Below are positions 5,706-15,873 of a stretch of DNA of 64,000 nucleotides, piece by piece. Numbering within the stretch: the first letter of the stretch is position 1; each line of letters opens with the position of its first letter. The translations under genes and the position numbers were made by a program. Source of the stretch: an uncultured Acidobacteriota bacterium. Its GTDB lineage: Bacteria > Acidobacteriota > Vicinamibacteria > Vicinamibacterales > CAVPJW01. Under the pieces are notes generated by a model. That model saw only the letters and a list, made by a program, of their open reading frames with translations, was not told the DNA's origin and made no database searches. The DNA is taken from the NCBI GenBank assembly GCA_963705525.1, contig CAVPJW010000003.1, forward strand, positions 339,976-403,975, given 5' to 3'.

Positions 5706-7415
5706 TCAATGGCTGGCGTTCGGGCTGGATCGATCGAACATGACCTTTCCTCCCACGACCGTCATCATCACCCTGGCCTGCCTGATGTTCTCAGGAGCCA
5801 TCTGACGCAGGTCCTGATCGATGACGACGAAGTCGGGAAGACGGCCCACGGTGAGCGCGCCCTTTCGCTGCTCCTCGAACGATGCGTACGCGGCCGTTCC
5901 GGTGTAGGCCTCGAGTGCCTGTTCGACGGAGATCTTCTGTTCGGGCACCCAACCCTGCGGCGTCTTGTCGTCGATCGTGCGCCGCGTGACGGCGGCGTAG
6001 ATGCCTTCGAGGGGCATCGGCGGCGCGACGAACCAGTCGCTGCCAAACGACACGCGCGCATTCGCGTCAAGCAGCGATTTGAAAGCGTAGGTTGTCTTGA
6101 TGCGTACCGGCCCAATCACTTTCTCGGCCCATCGTCCGTCATCGATGGCGTGGTACGGCTGCATGCTGGCGATGACACCGAGGTCGTGGAATCGGGGAAT
6201 GTCGCCGGGCAGCAGATGCTGAGCGTGCTCGATGCGGAACCGACGATCTCGCGCACCGTCTTCCTGTTCGACCCGCTGGTAGATGTCGAGCAACGTCCTG
6301 TTGGCCCGGTCGCCAATCGCGTGCACCACGACGTGAAGTCCGGCCTTGTCGGCGCCGGAAATCCATGCGTAGAGATTCTCCGGTGTATTCACAAAGAAGC
6401 CGCGATCCTTCGGCGCGTCGGTGAACGGCTCTTCGAACGCCGCCGTGTGTGATCCGAGCGAACCGTCCACAAATCCCTTGAGCGCACCGATGCGCAGCCA
6501 CTCGTCGCCACGCCCATCGGGTCCGTACTCCTTCGACTGGACGACGTCACGAAGACGCTCCCACGTCGCGAGCGGGACCGCGGCGTAGATGCGCGTCCGG
6601 AGTCGTCCCGCCTTGCGCGCGCGCGTGAATGTGGCGAGATCGTCCCAGGTTCCCATGTGATGAACTGACGTCACGCCCTGCTCTGCCACGTAGCGCATGG
6701 CAGCATCGAGCGCGCGGTCGCTCATCTCCGCCGAAGGCGGCGGCACGACCTTGTCCACCATCCCCATGGCGTTGTCTTTCAGAATCCCCGTGGGTTCGCC
6801 GCTCGCGCCCCGGACAATCGTCCCGCCTGATACGTCCTTCGTCGTCTTATCTACGCCGGCCGCCTCGAGCGCGGCGCTGTTGGCCAGAGCCATGTGGCCG
6901 TCGAGGCGATTCACCCAGACCGGATTCTGCTTCGTCGCCTCGTCTATCCATTCACGTCGAGGCAGCTCGCCGCCCCAAAGCTGATGGTCCCAGTCACCTC
7001 CGGTGATCCAGGTGCCGGAAGGTACAGTCGCCGCGAAGTCCTTGATCCGCCTGGAGAATTCTTCGGGCGTCTTCGCGTCGCGCAGCTGAACGGACGCCAG
7101 ACGGAATCCGCCGTCGGTGAAGTGCACATGGGTATCGATAAATCCGGGCACGAGCATCCGCCCGTGCGCATCGACGATCGTTGCGCCGGCCGACATCCGT
7201 CGAATCTTGTCGCTCGTGCCGACTCCGACGATTTCGGCATCGTTCACCGCAATCGCCTCGGCCGAGGGATGGGTGCTGTCTCCCGTCCAAACCCGTGCAT
7301 TGACGACCGCGAGCGTGACGCGCGCGGAGGAAACCGGAGCCTGTGCTGGCGGCGTCGCACAGCCATTCAGGAGACAAACAAAAACAACGCCGAGCGAGAG
7401 TCGCGTCATGACCAT
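5706..7415 (-). CDS. amidohydrolase family protein (YtcJ-like, amidohydrolase_3), secreted and possibly a lipoprotein
   Basis: VPGFIDTHVHF metal-binding motif, HAIGDRANR, RIEHAQHL and FGSDW. N-terminal signal MVMTRLSLGVVFVCLLNGC. Confidence 0.85.
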   Translation of the reverse strand: MVMTRLSLGVVFVCLLNGCATPPAQAPVSSARVTLAVVNARVWTGDSTHPSAEAIAVNDAEIVGVGTSDKIRRMSAGATIVDAHGRMLVPGFIDTHVHFTDGGFRLASVQLRDAKTPEEFSRRIKDFAATVPSGTWITGGDWDHQLWGGELPRREWIDEATKQNPVWVNRLDGHMALANSAALEAAGVDKTTKDVSGGTIVRGASGEPTGILKDNAMGMVDKVVPPPSAEMSDRALDAAMRYVAEQGVTSVHHMGTWDDLATFTRARKAGRLRTRIYAAVPLATWERLRDVVQSKEYGPDGRGDEWLRIGALKGFVDGSLGSHTAAFEEPFTDAPKDRGFFVNTPENLYAWISGADKAGLHVVVHAIGDRANRTLLDIYQRVEQEDGARDRRFRIEHAQHLLPGDIPRFHDLGVIASMQPYHAIDDGRWAEKVIGPVRIKTTYAFKSLLDANARVSFGSDWFVAPPMPLEGIYAAVTRRTIDDKTPQGWVPEQKISVEQALEAYTGTAAYASFEEQRKGALTVGRLPDFVVIDQDLRQMAPENIRQARVMMTVVGGKVMFDRSSPNASH

Positions 7416-11379: not shown

Positions 11380-12639
11380 CTAGAACGTCGACGACTTCAG
11401 CTGGAATGTCGCTTCGAGCTCCTTGTCGGTCTCGCGGCCCGTCACCCGGTTCGCGATGTACTCGCCGACCACCGGGCCGTGCTTGTACCCATGGCCCGAG
11501 CCGCCGCCTGCCAGCCACACGTTGTCGAACTCCGGGTGCCGCTGAATGATGAAGTGTTCGTCCACGCTCATCTCGAGCTGGCAGACGCGCGTCTCGACGA
11601 TTGGCTGATCCTTGAGCGCCGGAAAGCGCTTCGCGACGTAGTCCTTGGCCCGCTTCACCTGATACGGCGCCACGATGCGCTCGTCCGTGTCCGGATCGAA
11701 GGCGGTCAACTCTCCTGATGGGCAGACCTTCAATCCCCGGTAGTCGATCGACGGAAAGCCGTAGTAGCCGTTGGTCGATTCTTCGGAGTAGTTCGGGAAG
11801 TTGGGATACGTGAAGCGATCGTCTCCGGAAGGCGTGCCGAAATAGAAGACATCGCGGCGCGGCGTGAAGAGCTTCTTCGTCATCACGTCGGGAAAGACCT
11901 TCGCCAGCCAGGGGCCGCACGCGAAGACGAACGTCTGCGCGCCGAGCGCGCCGTGTCCAGTCAGCGTGATGTTCTCGAGGCGCCTTCCGGATCGGGCACC
12001 TGGCACGGCCTGCGCGATCATCATGCGCCCGCCCTTGCGTTCGAAGGCCTCGGCCACCGCGCGGCATCCTTCTCTCGCCTTCAGCACGCCGGTCGAGGGC
12101 TCGAACAGCGCGACACCGAGACCCTCGAAGCTGATCTGCGGATATCGCCGCGCCAGCTCCGTGTCCTTGATGACCTCGTTGTCGACACCCTCCTTGTCCA
12201 GGGTCGCTTTCGTCACCTGAAGGTCGTTGGTCCATTCCGGAGACAGGACCAGTCGCCCCGTCTGCAGAAACAATGTCTTGCCCCACTCCGCTTGCCTTGC
12301 CTTCCATCGCTCGAAAGCCTTCAGAACCCAGCGGGTATAGACGGCTCTATCCCCGTAGCCCGCGCGTATCTGACGCGTCTCGTCGCCGGAAGACGCGCGG
12401 GAGTTGCCCGGTCCGTACGCGTCCACGAGCGTTACGGTGTGGCCCATCTCTTTGAGGTACAGCGCCGTCCAGCCGCCAAAGGCGCCCGCGCCCACGACGA
12501 CCACATCGGGCGACGCACCCCCTTGCGCTCTACGGCGAACGGTCCCGGCGACAGGAGCCGCATCAACCGATCGGGTTCCAAGAGCTAACGACGAGGCGCC
12601 GGCGATCTGGAGAAATGTGCGACGAGGGATGGAGGACAT
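11380..12639 (-). CDS. FAD-dependent oxidoreductase (DAO / sarcosine-oxidase-like) with a Tat signal
   Basis: Twin-arginine signal MSSIPRRTFLQIAGASSLALG. Dinucleotide-binding motif VVVVGAGAFGGWTALYL. C-terminal GGGSGHGYKHGP. Confidence 0.85.
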   Translation of the reverse strand: MSSIPRRTFLQIAGASSLALGTRSVDAAPVAGTVRRRAQGGASPDVVVVGAGAFGGWTALYLKEMGHTVTLVDAYGPGNSRASSGDETRQIRAGYGDRAVYTRWVLKAFERWKARQAEWGKTLFLQTGRLVLSPEWTNDLQVTKATLDKEGVDNEVIKDTELARRYPQISFEGLGVALFEPSTGVLKAREGCRAVAEAFERKGGRMMIAQAVPGARSGRRLENITLTGHGALGAQTFVFACGPWLAKVFPDVMTKKLFTPRRDVFYFGTPSGDDRFTYPNFPNYSEESTNGYYGFPSIDYRGLKVCPSGELTAFDPDTDERIVAPYQVKRAKDYVAKRFPALKDQPIVETRVCQLEMSVDEHFIIQRHPEFDNVWLAGGGSGHGYKHGPVVGEYIANRVTGRETDKELEATFQLKSSTF

Positions 12640-12645
12640 GACAAC

Positions 12646-12680
12646 TGGTTCCTGGTTCTTGATTCTTAGTTCTTAGTGCG
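12646..12680. repeat. heptanucleotide tandem array (5 units) spanning the junction between the AhpD-like gene and the FAD oxidase gene
   Basis: Plus strand: TGGTTCC TGGTTCT TGATTCT TAGTTCT TAGTGCG. Minus strand: CTAAGAA CTAAGAA TCAAGAA CCAGGAA CCAG. Confidence 0.7.
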
Positions 12681-13235
12681 CCTTGGGTCCGGCGGCATGA
12701 AGTCTTCCAGGTCCACGCCGAGGCCGTCCGCCACGCGATTGATGTAGTTGAAGTAGCTGACGACCTGAACGGCGTCGTTGATCGCCTCATCGTCATGACC
12801 CGCTGCCCCCAGGCGCGCGATGTCGTCCGGTCCGACCGACGCGGGCATCTTCGTCAGCTTCTCCGCGAACTCGAAGAGCGCCGCGTCCGAGGCCGGCAGG
12901 TTTATCGTCCGCCAGTCCTGCTTGAACCGCGCCGCGAAAACCGCATCGTCGATCTCGACCCGGAGATCGTCGGCGTGGGCCTCGACTCAATAATGACAAT
13001 CGTTCGCGCGTGAGACGACGATCGCGAGCATTTCGCGAGTCGCGCGCGAGAGCCTCGACGGGCCGTGCATGAGCACGATATAGAGGTTGATGCTCGCTTC
13101 GAGCTGTTTCGGCTTGAGGCCCTGGAGGCGGACGATGTTGTAGATGCGGCCGGCACGTTTGATGGCGAGGTCGTACTGCTCGCGTAGCCTTCGGTCGGCC
13201 TCGTCGTAGCCGAAGGTGCGTATCCAGGCGGTCAT
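12666..13235 (-). CDS. AhpD-like / carboxymuconolactone decarboxylase family 'peroxidase-related enzyme' with an in-frame TGA at the CxxC motif (candidate selenoprotein, CHYU)
   Basis: Track ORFs 12987..13235 and 12666..12848 are in the same frame (570 nt = 190 codons), separated only by TGA 12989..12987. My read-through translation is ...REMLAIVVSRANDCHY[TGA]VEAHADDLRVEIDD...ALFEFAEKLTKMPASV...VVSYFNYINRVADGLGV. This is continuous family-like sequence on both sides of the TGA. Confidence 0.65.
12941..12978 (-). other. candidate bacterial SECIS-like hairpin downstream of the in-frame UGA
   Basis: The core stem CGAUCUC / GAGAUCG (12969..12963 pairs with 12956..12950) carries the loop CGGGUC. 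The stem starts 17 nt after the UGA. Flanking partial pairings extend it to 12978..12941. Confidence 0.35.
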
Positions 13236-14152
13236 GGCCGTGTGCGCGCCAGGATCTCGATGCCCTCGAACTGGTAGCGTGTGACGCCCTCACGCTCGAC
13301 CTTGGAGCTCGCCTTGCCCGAGGTCAGCGCCGCGAACGCGCGGGACACGCGGCCAAGGATTGCGGGCGGTGTCGTCGCCTCGTTGTGCCCGGGACAGACG
13401 CGATCGACCTGCCCTTCGAGCGCCGCCAGCCGCGCCGTGGAACGGACGTAGTCGTCAAGATTCGCATCGTTGGTGTGCGCGTAGAGCGTTGCAGGATAAA
13501 TGGTGTCGCCGGTGAAGAGCATTCGGGCGGCGCGGTCCAGCACGCAGATGCTGTCGGGGGTGTGACCAGGCGTGAACAACACCTCGAGCCGGCGATCGCC
13601 GAGGTCGACGATCTCGCCGTCGTGGAGAAACCGTGAGGGCGCTATCGGATCGCGGCGGTACACCTTGGGATCGAAGCCGGGAGGCAGCGGCCGCACGACC
13701 GATTCGTCGGTAATCTGAGCCGACAGGTCGGTCACGCCGCGCGCCAGCCGTTCGCGCGAGAATGCGCAGTCGTACACCGCGACGTCTTTGTAATATTTGT
13801 CTCCACCCGTGTGGTCGAAATGCGAATGCGAATTGATGACCAGGACCGGCTTCGTGGTGATTTGATCCACCACCGCCTTGAGATTGCCGATGCCCATTCC
13901 CGTATCGAAGAGCACGGCGCGGTCGCGCCCTTCGATCAGGTAGGAGATCGCCTCCTCGAAGTGCCCGGGTTCATAGAACGCGGTCGTGCCGGGCGCGATG
14001 CGATAGACCTCGAACCACGGGCTCTCGACCGAGACGCGCTCGAGCGTCTTGTAGACCGGTCTCGGCAGCTCGTCCGACCAGCGGCTCTGCCCGGCGACCG
14101 TCATTCCCCATCCCAGAAAGCCGATGGCCACGCCGACGATCCGCCGCGTCAT
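13232..14152 (-). CDS. MBL-fold metallo-hydrolase, secreted
   Basis: VLVINSHSHFDHTGGD, FTPGHTPDS and CPGHNE. Signal MTRRIVGVAIGFLGWGMTVAGQS. I prefer the ATG at 14152, 4 nt after the upstream stop. 4-nt overlap with the AhpD-like gene. Confidence 0.85.
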   Translation of the reverse strand: MTRRIVGVAIGFLGWGMTVAGQSRWSDELPRPVYKTLERVSVESPWFEVYRIAPGTTAFYEPGHFEEAISYLIEGRDRAVLFDTGMGIGNLKAVVDQITTKPVLVINSHSHFDHTGGDKYYKDVAVYDCAFSRERLARGVTDLSAQITDESVVRPLPPGFDPKVYRRDPIAPSRFLHDGEIVDLGDRRLEVLFTPGHTPDSICVLDRAARMLFTGDTIYPATLYAHTNDANLDDYVRSTARLAALEGQVDRVCPGHNEATTPPAILGRVSRAFAALTSGKASSKVEREGVTRYQFEGIEILARTRP

Positions 14153-14156
14153 CGCG

Positions 14157-15873
14157 CTACTCGGTTTGCGACGTCGCCCGGTTGAAGACGACCTTGCCGC
14201 CCACAATCGTATAGAGCACCTCGGTTGAGAGAATCTCATCTTCGGGCACGGTCATGATGTCCTTGGACAGGATCGTGATGTCCGCCAGCTTGCCCACGTG
14301 CAGTGATCCCCTGGTGCTCTCTTCGAACGCGGCGAACGCCGCGTTCATCGTGTACGACTTGAGCGCCTGCTCCCTCGTCATGCGCTGCTCGGGATAGAAG
14401 ATCGTGCCGTCCTTGAGCTTGCGCGACACACTGGCGTAGAAGCTCGGGATCGGATTCACGTCCTCGACCGGCGCGTCGGTGCCGTTGGACACGACGGCGC
14501 CCGACTTGATCAGACTCTGCCAGACGTAGGCGCCCTCCTGCGAGCGCTGGGGCCCCAGCCTGACCGGGACGAAGATCGCATCCGACGTGCAGTGCACGCC
14601 CTGCATCGAGGCAATGACGCCGAGCTGGCCGAATCGCGGAATGTCGTCAGGATTCAGGTGCTGGGCGTGCTCGATGCGCCAGCGCAGATCCTTCTTCTCG
14701 GGATTGGCCTTGAAGGCCGCCTCGAACACGTTCAGGACCTCGCGATTCGCGCGGTCGCCGATCGCGTGCACGCAGAGCTGGAAGCCGTGCTGGACCGCCA
14801 GCCTCGCCGTCTCGGCAATCTCTTCCATCGGCGTCGTGTTCAACCCTGTGCTCTGCGGAAGATCCGTATACGGCTCGAGCAGCCACGCGCCGTGCGAGCC
14901 GAGCGCTCCGTCGCTCATCCGCTTGATGCCGCGGACGGTCAACCTTTTCTCGCCGTAGTCGACCGTGCGGTACTTGTCGAGATTGGCCGCCAGCTTGTCG
15001 TTCGACTCGTTGAGCATCACCCAGAGTCGAAGCGGGAGCTTGCCTTCATCCGCCATCTTCTTCAAGAGATCGACCGTGGCGAACGAGCTCCCCGCATCCT
15101 GAAGACTCGTGATGCCCTTCGAAATCGCTTCCTGGGATGCCATCTCGATCGCGGCGTCGGGCGAGCATCTCGTCGCCGGCCGCCATGTCGATGACCTTGC
15201 CGAGGAGCTCCTGTGCGGTTTCCTTGAAGTACCCGGTGGGATTGCCCTTCGCATCCTTCACGATCTCGCCGCCGTGGGGATTGGGAGTCGTCTTCGTGAT
15301 GCCGGCGAGCTCCATCGCCTTGGCGTTGGCAAACACCGCGTGTCCGCTCGCGTGCTCGAGGACCACGGGATTGTTCGGCGAGGCCGCGCTGAGCGACGCG
15401 TGCACGGGCACGCCCTCGACGGTCGGCACTGGCATCTTGTCCCATTTGGCCTGGTGCCAGCCTCGCCCGCGAATCAGCTCGCCCGGCTTCGCCTTCTTCG
15501 CGGCCTCGGCCACCATCGAGACGATCTCGTCGTAATTCCTGACGCTCATCAGGTTCAGCTGCAGTCTCGCATCGCCGACACCCGTGAAGTGACCGTGTCC
15601 CTCGATGAATCCGGGAATCGCGAGTTTGCCGCCGAGGTCCAGCACCTCGGTCGCATCGCCCACGTACGGCGCGATTTCCTCGTTGGTGCCTACCGCCACG
15701 ATCGTGTCTCCACGCGCGGCGAGCGCCTGCACCTCAGGGTGTCGCGAATCGACGGTGACAATCTTGCCGTTCCGCAGGACGAGGGAGGCTGGCTCGACCT
15801 TGGCGCCGCAGGCGGCGACTCCGCAGGCCAGCACGAGCGAGAACGCCGAGGCGAGCAGTCGGGAAGAAGACAT
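14157..15873 (-). pseudogene. amidohydrolase family protein (YtcJ-like; paralog of 5706..7415), frameshifted or carrying a sequencing indel
   Basis: The N-terminal part is in track ORF 15046..15873 (lipoprotein-like LVLACGVAACG, then IPGFIEGHGHF). The C-terminal part is in 14157..15254 (HAIGDRANREV, RIEHAQHLNPDDIPRF). The length is 1717 nt (3n+1). The frames join at the GGG/CCC run 15159..15161 (..AAGDEMLA / DAAIEMASQEA..). Confidence 0.8.

Follow-up and report, generated by a model that had tools for sequence, protein, structure and literature searches.

An AhpD-like gene with an in-frame TGA at the second redox cysteine position in an Acidobacteriota genome, a probable selenoprotein gene

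An AhpD-like gene interrupted by a single TGA codon

The window, by which we mean the whole 64,000-nucleotide stretch of DNA analysed here, carries on its minus strand a gene of the AhpD-like type (12666..13235), which starts with ATG at 13235..13233, ends with TAA at 12668..12666 and comprises 189 codons plus the stop. The sole in-frame TGA of this gene is codon 83 (12989..12987), located directly after Cys80-His-Tyr. The ORF listing cuts the gene in two at this point, giving an ORF of 82 residues (12987..13235) and another of 60 residues (12666..12848). As the original prediction had stated, both ORFs lie in one frame and are parted only by the TGA, and their coordinates and translations agree with this description. 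The read-through translation is MTAWIRTF...AIVVSRANDCHY[TGA]VEAHADDLRVEI...PPDPRRTKN, in which the fragment around the TGA reads ...AIVVSRANDCHY*VEAHADDL.... Downstream of the TGA, 106 codons are open, which equals the median of the family and compares well with the approximately 105 codons of family-like sequence that had been estimated originally.

We scored the product with Cys placed at the TGA position. The read-through product obtained 133 bits against the NCBIfam model TIGR01926 "peroxidase-related enzyme" (cutoff 81.8), and the match covers residues 5-174 and profile positions 3-173 of 178, running straight across the TGA. Pfam CMD (PF02627) and the AhpD core-domain model TIGR00778 also matched. 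The predicted product is thus a full-length TIGR01926 enzyme within the AhpD/CMD superfamily. Two related models gave scores below their cutoffs. The model for the Mycobacterium tuberculosis-type AhpD (TIGR00777) gave 16 bits against a cutoff of 192, so the window protein is not an orthologue of M. tuberculosis AhpD, even though it belongs to the same superfamily and shares the same CxxC(x)3H active-site layout. NF041238 (AhpD_rel_CFYUT), a family with a related CMD-type domain and with Sec at the second position of its C-F-Y-U motif, gave 57.5 bits against a cutoff of 175. Members of that family have about 357 residues, and the window protein matches only their C-terminal domain (profile positions 215-339), so that it is not a member.

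The nearest solved structure is that of Deinococcus radiodurans DR1765 (PDB 6k40), which was aligned over 164 residues without a gap (E = 3.7e-27). In this alignment, N-R-C-V-Y-C-A-V-S-H of 6k40 corresponds to N-D-C-H-Y-U-V-E-A-H of the product, which aligns the TGA with the second Cys in the active-site motif CxxC(x)3H. The redox motif of the window protein would accordingly read C80-H-Y-U83 followed by x-x-x-His87 (C-H-Y-U-x-x-x-H), and His87 is invariant in the family alignment. The assignment of the TGA to the second redox Cys, which was the core of the original prediction, holds in the alignments with both 6k40 and 2oyo. Unlike the window protein, DR1765 and the other solved TIGR01926-type proteins (2oyo, 3c1l, 2pfx and 2prr) carry Cys at the second position, and their identity to it is moderate. 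DR1765 is the nearest experimental anchor for the family: according to the summary of Zhao et al. 2020 given in PMC8945050, its deletion makes cells sensitive to H2O2, and mutants of the CxxC cysteines complement poorly.

Upstream of the AhpD-like gene lies a gene for a hydrolase of the metallo-beta-lactamase (MBL) fold (13232..14239, minus strand; Pfam Lactamase_B). Its TGA stop overlaps the start codon of the AhpD-like gene in an ATGA (13232..13235, minus strand), as seen in the sequence, the ORF table and the Pfam match. This overlap suggests that the two genes may be co-transcribed and translationally coupled. A gene for a DAO-family FAD oxidoreductase (11380..12639, minus strand) follows downstream. 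Its product starts with a twin-arginine-like signal (MSSIPRRTFLQIAGASSLALG), suggesting export, and the AhpD-like protein has no signal peptide. Farther upstream, an Amidohydro_3 gene (14157..15873, minus strand) appears to be split over two frames: the ORF at 15046..15873 covers profile positions 1-160 and the ORF at 14157..15254 covers positions 159-472, implying a frameshift near 15155. The split may reflect a pseudogene or an error in sequencing or assembly; programmed frameshifting is less likely. An intact Amidohydro_3 paralogue is found at 5706..7415.

The TGA codon among relatives and within the window

In a scan in which each GTDB species was represented by one genome, 80 loci were identified, and one further locus (L081) was added, giving 81 loci for comparison. 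The homologous codon is TGA in 80 of them (79 loci of the genome scan and L081), which answers the question that the original prediction had left to a comparison of orthologues, namely whether they carry Cys or TGA at this codon. Every TGA locus has the context C-x-Y/F-TGA-x-x-[A/S]-H. The single TGC locus, L039, has the context S-T-R-Y-C. The 80 scanned species are all represented by metagenome-assembled genomes (MAGs) and belong to a dozen or so phylum-level groups. They include Acidobacteriota (Vicinamibacterales, Bryobacterales and others), Chloroflexota (Roseiflexaceae, Ardenticatenales, Anaerolineaceae and Caldilineaceae), Planctomycetota/Phycisphaerae, Acidimicrobiia, Gemmatimonadota, Poribacteria, Latescibacterota, Marinimicrobia, Verrucomicrobiota and Calditrichaceae. 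The best genome match to the window gene, with 59% identity, comes from a Vicinamibacterales MAG.

The protein databases present a different picture of the same codon. Among the 120 homologue clusters listed in the protein search, 72 have residue 84, which directly follows the TGA, as their first residue. They typically begin with M/V-E-A-H-A-x-D-L-R..., since an ATG or GTG is often found just past the TGA and gene callers take it as a new start. Another 15 of the listed clusters start farther downstream. The site is spanned by the remaining 33, of which 19 have Trp, 10 have Cys and 4 are of other kinds. The Cys forms include CHYC (P0022) and TRYC (P0002 and others). The 19 entries with Trp (C-x-Y-W; P0001, P0003, P0018 and 16 more) derive from short metagenome contigs, and in each of the three whose DNA was examined, the standard code gives an in-frame stop. 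Trp at this site is thus an artefact, introduced by gene callers that applied a code in which TGA means Trp. The TGA could be read directly in L081 (347-349), and L088 and L089 give an asterisk at the site when translated with table 11. The family is thus systematically mis-called in public protein sets, either as C-terminal fragments starting just past the UGA or with a false Trp in the active site.

With TGA in 80 of 81 loci and Cys in L039 and ten database homologues, the site shows the Cys/Sec interchange on which the original prediction was built, that is, a Sec/Cys pair. Retention of a TGA at one active-site position across phyla, where nothing but Cys replaces it naturally, is accepted as the hallmark of a Sec codon. 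The family itself is well catalogued. AhpD-like CxxU proteins (COG2128) were described as a new selenoprotein family with 27 sequences in the Sargasso Sea survey (PMC1088965), and in the GOS data "AhpD-like 1" ranked fourth in abundance among selenoprotein families, counting 299 Sec sequences alongside 902 Cys homologues (PMC2398784). AhpD-like selenoproteins were also found in complete genomes (PMC1794560), BSepDB holds a family page for them, and a 2026 review lists the AhpD-like protein as COG2128 / TIGR01926, CxxU (PMC13188914), as does a 2022 review. The statement in the original prediction that AhpD-like Sec proteins had been reported was hence correct: the CxxU family, COG2128/TIGR01926, has been catalogued since 2005. 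The window gene resembles this family in the TIGR01926 model, in the CxxU motif with its predicted Sec at the second position, in the Sec/Cys pairs and in a hairpin just past the UGA. Unlike the marine-plankton members, the window copy comes from a genome of 64% GC and has its nearest relatives among soil and sediment MAGs, but nothing essential differs.

The principal competing explanation is a pseudogene produced by a nonsense mutation, either by conversion of a TGC or TGT Cys codon to TGA or by loss of the Sec machinery, which would have left a recently stranded gene. The locus would then yield an 82-residue fragment followed by a decaying 3' part. TGA is one base away from TGC, the split amidohydrolase gene indicates that damaged genes or assembly errors occur in this window, and the 64-kb window contains no sel genes or tRNA-Sec: tblastn with E. 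coli SelA, SelB and SelD as queries gave no match in it, and ARAGORN found neither a tRNA-Sec nor a tRNA of any other kind. Against this explanation, the TGA is ancestral, being present in 80 of 81 relatives from about a dozen phylum-level groups, and this excludes a private nonsense mutation. Moreover, the 106 codons 3' of the TGA are open and as conserved as in other members. The C-terminal half of the window protein has a mean identity of 52.1% to the 80 relatives (rank 33 of 81), and its C-half/N-half identity ratio is 0.99, where the family mean is 0.96 +/- 0.06 (rank 60 of 81). The invariant residues H87, D90, Y161, F162 and R167 are all present. The GC content at third codon positions (GC3) is of the coding type, with 0.87 downstream and 0.82 upstream of the TGA as opposed to 0.39-0.70 in the other two frames, and is in line with, or slightly above, that of the other genes in the window. 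Conservation and codon bias downstream of the TGA, which the original prediction had singled out as informative, both persist, and we see no sign of relaxed selection in this half of the gene, which appears to be conserved as in other members. Finally, at one position of the hairpin (see below), the C-G pair of most relatives (GAC...GUC) is replaced in the window by U-A (GAU...AUC), a change compensated on both sides, implying that the stem is still kept paired. The conserved TGA, the intact downstream half and the maintained pairing effectively exclude a pseudogene, to which we give only a very small residual probability.

Even less probable is that UGA is reassigned in this organism or read through without Sec, an altered code or a suppressor placing Trp, Gly or Cys at the site. 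Gene callers did create "CxYW" versions of 19 homologues by using a code with TGA as Trp, but these are the short-contig gene-calling artefacts described above. In the window, TGA is the commonest stop: it terminates 30 of the 48 long ORFs with high GC3, including the MBL-fold gene directly upstream, and is therefore not reassigned in this genome. A by-eye inspection of other in-frame TGA candidates in the window (at least 40 open codons on each side and high GC3) revealed none that was protein-like. The site is furthermore a redox Cys position with Cys as the natural alternative, and selA/selB genes lie near the orthologues in two genomes. In a Planctomycetaceae MAG (L051:10001-12635), a selB homologue is directly downstream of the orthologue, and in a Phycisphaerae MAG (L074:150-6873), selA and selB are located about 3 kb upstream of it on the opposite strand. 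That the locus represents two separate small genes of 82 and 60 residues, as mechanical ORF calling would have it, is the least credible of the explanations, as each piece contains only part of the domain, the junction is bridged without a gap by both the family profile and the solved structures, and the 60-residue ORF starts at an internal Met 46 codons after the TGA, omitting the invariant His87 and Asp90.

A covarying hairpin downstream of the UGA

A hairpin resembling a bacterial SECIS element lies within the coding sequence at 12950..12969 on the minus strand, with a 7-bp stem (CGAUCUC/GAGAUCG) and a 6-nt loop (CGGGUC). It begins 17 nt after the UGA and codes for D90-L-R-V-E-I95; stem, loop, position and spacing are all as the original prediction had described them. 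The bacterial SECIS consensus of Zhang and Gladyshev, in the form quoted in PMC13188914, has an apical loop of 3-9 nt with a G at position 1, 2 or both, an upper stem of 4-16 bp, a UGA-to-loop distance of 16-37 nt and a folding energy of -7.5 kcal/mol or lower. The 6-nt loop and 7-bp stem fall within these sizes, and a G occupies loop position 2. The distance from the UGA to the loop is 24 nt (17-nt spacer and 7-nt stem arm), which supports the view that the spacing suits a bacterial SECIS element. The 20-mer has an energy of -8.5 kcal/mol, with a family median of -9.4 kcal/mol.

The folding of the single sequence is less distinctive. Among mononucleotide shuffles of the isolated 20-mer, 2.6% fold equally well. 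In its sequence context, the region folds no better than shuffled sequences: the z-score of a 71-nt stretch is -0.95 and that of a 45-nt stretch 0.00, and in neither does the minimum-free-energy structure contain the helix in the 12969..12950 register. Rfam searches of the whole window at gathering thresholds, and of 12880..13040 at permissive thresholds, detected neither a SECIS element nor a credible RNA family. Because the stability of the single sequence is not significant, support for the hairpin comes from the comparison across loci.

For this comparison, we used an ungapped alignment of the TGA and the following 45 nt from 81 genes, comprising 76 distinct sequences. In the 76 distinct sequences, 92.1% of the cells of the 7-bp helix are paired, versus 25-48% when the register is slid by 1-3 nt. 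Six of the seven pairs show two-sided compensatory changes, and none of 500 shuffles reached the observed values. The change from GAC...GUC to GAU...AUC occurs in 11 distinct sequences including that of the window, the change from CUC...GAG to UUC...GAA in six sequences and that from CUC...GAG to CUG...CAG in two, and L076 has the helix variant AGCCUC...GAGGCU. Among the individual pairs, C-G is replaced by U-A at two, the top pair turns from G-C into C-G, and the outer pair varies in several ways. In several of the compensatory changes, one substitution is synonymous and the other exchanges an amino acid conservatively, a pattern that speaks for selection acting on the RNA. The original proposal of a candidate bacterial SECIS element is thereby strengthened, by agreement with the published consensus as well as by covariation in six of seven pairs.

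The hairpin by itself would not prove the case for Sec. Stem and loop encode the conserved peptide D-L-R-x-E-V/I, so that RNA and protein constraints are confounded, and the conservation of the hairpin may be imposed in part by the D-L-R-x-E-V peptide. The same holds for loop positions 1 and 2 (C and G), which are invariant in the 81 sequences and belong to the Arg92 codon. Nor is the hairpin exclusive to genes with the TGA, since a Cys form with C-H-Y-C and a TGC codon (L084, 305-814) retains a perfect hairpin of -9.1 kcal/mol; the T-R-Y-C forms have weakened hairpins of -3.5 to -7.8 kcal/mol. The hairpin of L084 looks like either a fossil SECIS element left behind when Sec was recently converted to Cys or a structure that the peptide imposes. 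Remnant SECIS structures have been documented in Cys forms derived from Sec forms (PMC1794560), and hairpins in Cys forms therefore do not contradict a SECIS role.

Five loci (L043, L046, L050, L054 and L058), whose named taxa are Acidobacteriota or Terriglobia, lack the usual hairpin and have the peptide motif H-G-E-D-L-R. They share an alternative hairpin, ACGGRGA-GGA-UCUCCGU, which starts about 10 nt after the UGA (TGA +10 to +30). We interpret it as a second putative SECIS solution within one protein family.

Proposed selenocysteine incorporation and function

The gene is intact, its product belongs to TIGR01926, the TGA is conserved and forms a Sec/Cys pair with the homologues, and the hairpin is conserved and covaries. 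With these observations at hand, we consider it very probable (roughly 93%) that the locus is an intact gene encoding an AhpD-like selenoprotein with Sec at UGA codon 83. The UGA at 12989..12987 would be decoded as Sec by Sec-tRNA(Sec). SelB would bind the hairpin at 12969..12950 as the bacterial SECIS element and deliver Sec-tRNA(Sec), a step to which the covariation in six of seven pairs lends indirect support, and the ribosome would continue for 106 codons to the TAA at 12666. In the CxxC motif of AhpD, Sec83 would replace the second Cys; Cys80 would be its partner, and His87 would lie close by. Cys80 and Sec83 could form a selenenylsulfide/selenol-thiol redox pair, and the protein may act as a thiol/selenol oxidoreductase that reduces peroxides or a partner of the peroxiredoxin type.

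In terms of annotation, the locus would be entered as one selenoprotein of 189 residues (transl_except Sec at codon 83) instead of two hypothetical ORFs or a pseudogene. A selenoprotein gene also predicts the Sec-decoding trait (selABCD) in the source organism. The current understanding of selenoproteins is not altered by the window gene, which adds one member to a well-catalogued family; the relatives compared here place this family widely in soil and sediment lineages (Vicinamibacterales, Bryobacterales, Acidimicrobiia and Planctomycetota), beyond marine plankton.

The neighbours in the window (MBL fold, DAO, amidohydrolase and arginase) are not conserved beside the orthologues, and the local operon therefore yields no functional clue; the combination of MBL-fold and DAO-type FAD oxidoreductase genes sets the window gene apart from its relatives. 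Neither an ahpC gene nor a gene for a lipoyl protein was seen among the ten annotated ORFs around the AhpD-like gene. At 13 loci, mostly from Acidimicrobiia, the Sec-form gene adjoins the genes for the alpha and beta subunits of 2-oxoacid dehydrogenase E1 (L015, L018, L020, L023, L027, L030, L036-L038, L059, L063, L073 and L079). Two relatives of the Cys form TRYC (L085:1-1570 and L086:1-1570) directly follow a gene for an E2 lipoyl acyltransferase and overlap a peptidase S10 gene. M. tuberculosis AhpD is a lipoamide-dependent reductant of AhpC and a weak peroxidase (PMC8945050). By analogy, the E1 and E2 neighbours point to a possible functional link with lipoyl-dependent reduction.

A variant of the mechanism departs from a redox pair of Cys80 and Sec83. 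In the Cys-form clade closest to the Sec forms, the first Cys is lost and the second is kept (T-R-Y-C versus C-H-Y-U). Because this clade dispenses with the first Cys, and because both forms are often found beside 2-oxoacid dehydrogenase E1/E2 genes, residue 83 (Sec or Cys) might be a single nucleophile, with an external dithiol (for instance a lipoyl arm) taking the resolving role instead of the CxxC partner, in a family that has two in-frame SECIS solutions. We put this forward as a speculative and rather unlikely combination. If it were true, the family would be a compact natural system for following the co-evolution of a peptide and an RNA signal in the same nucleotides.
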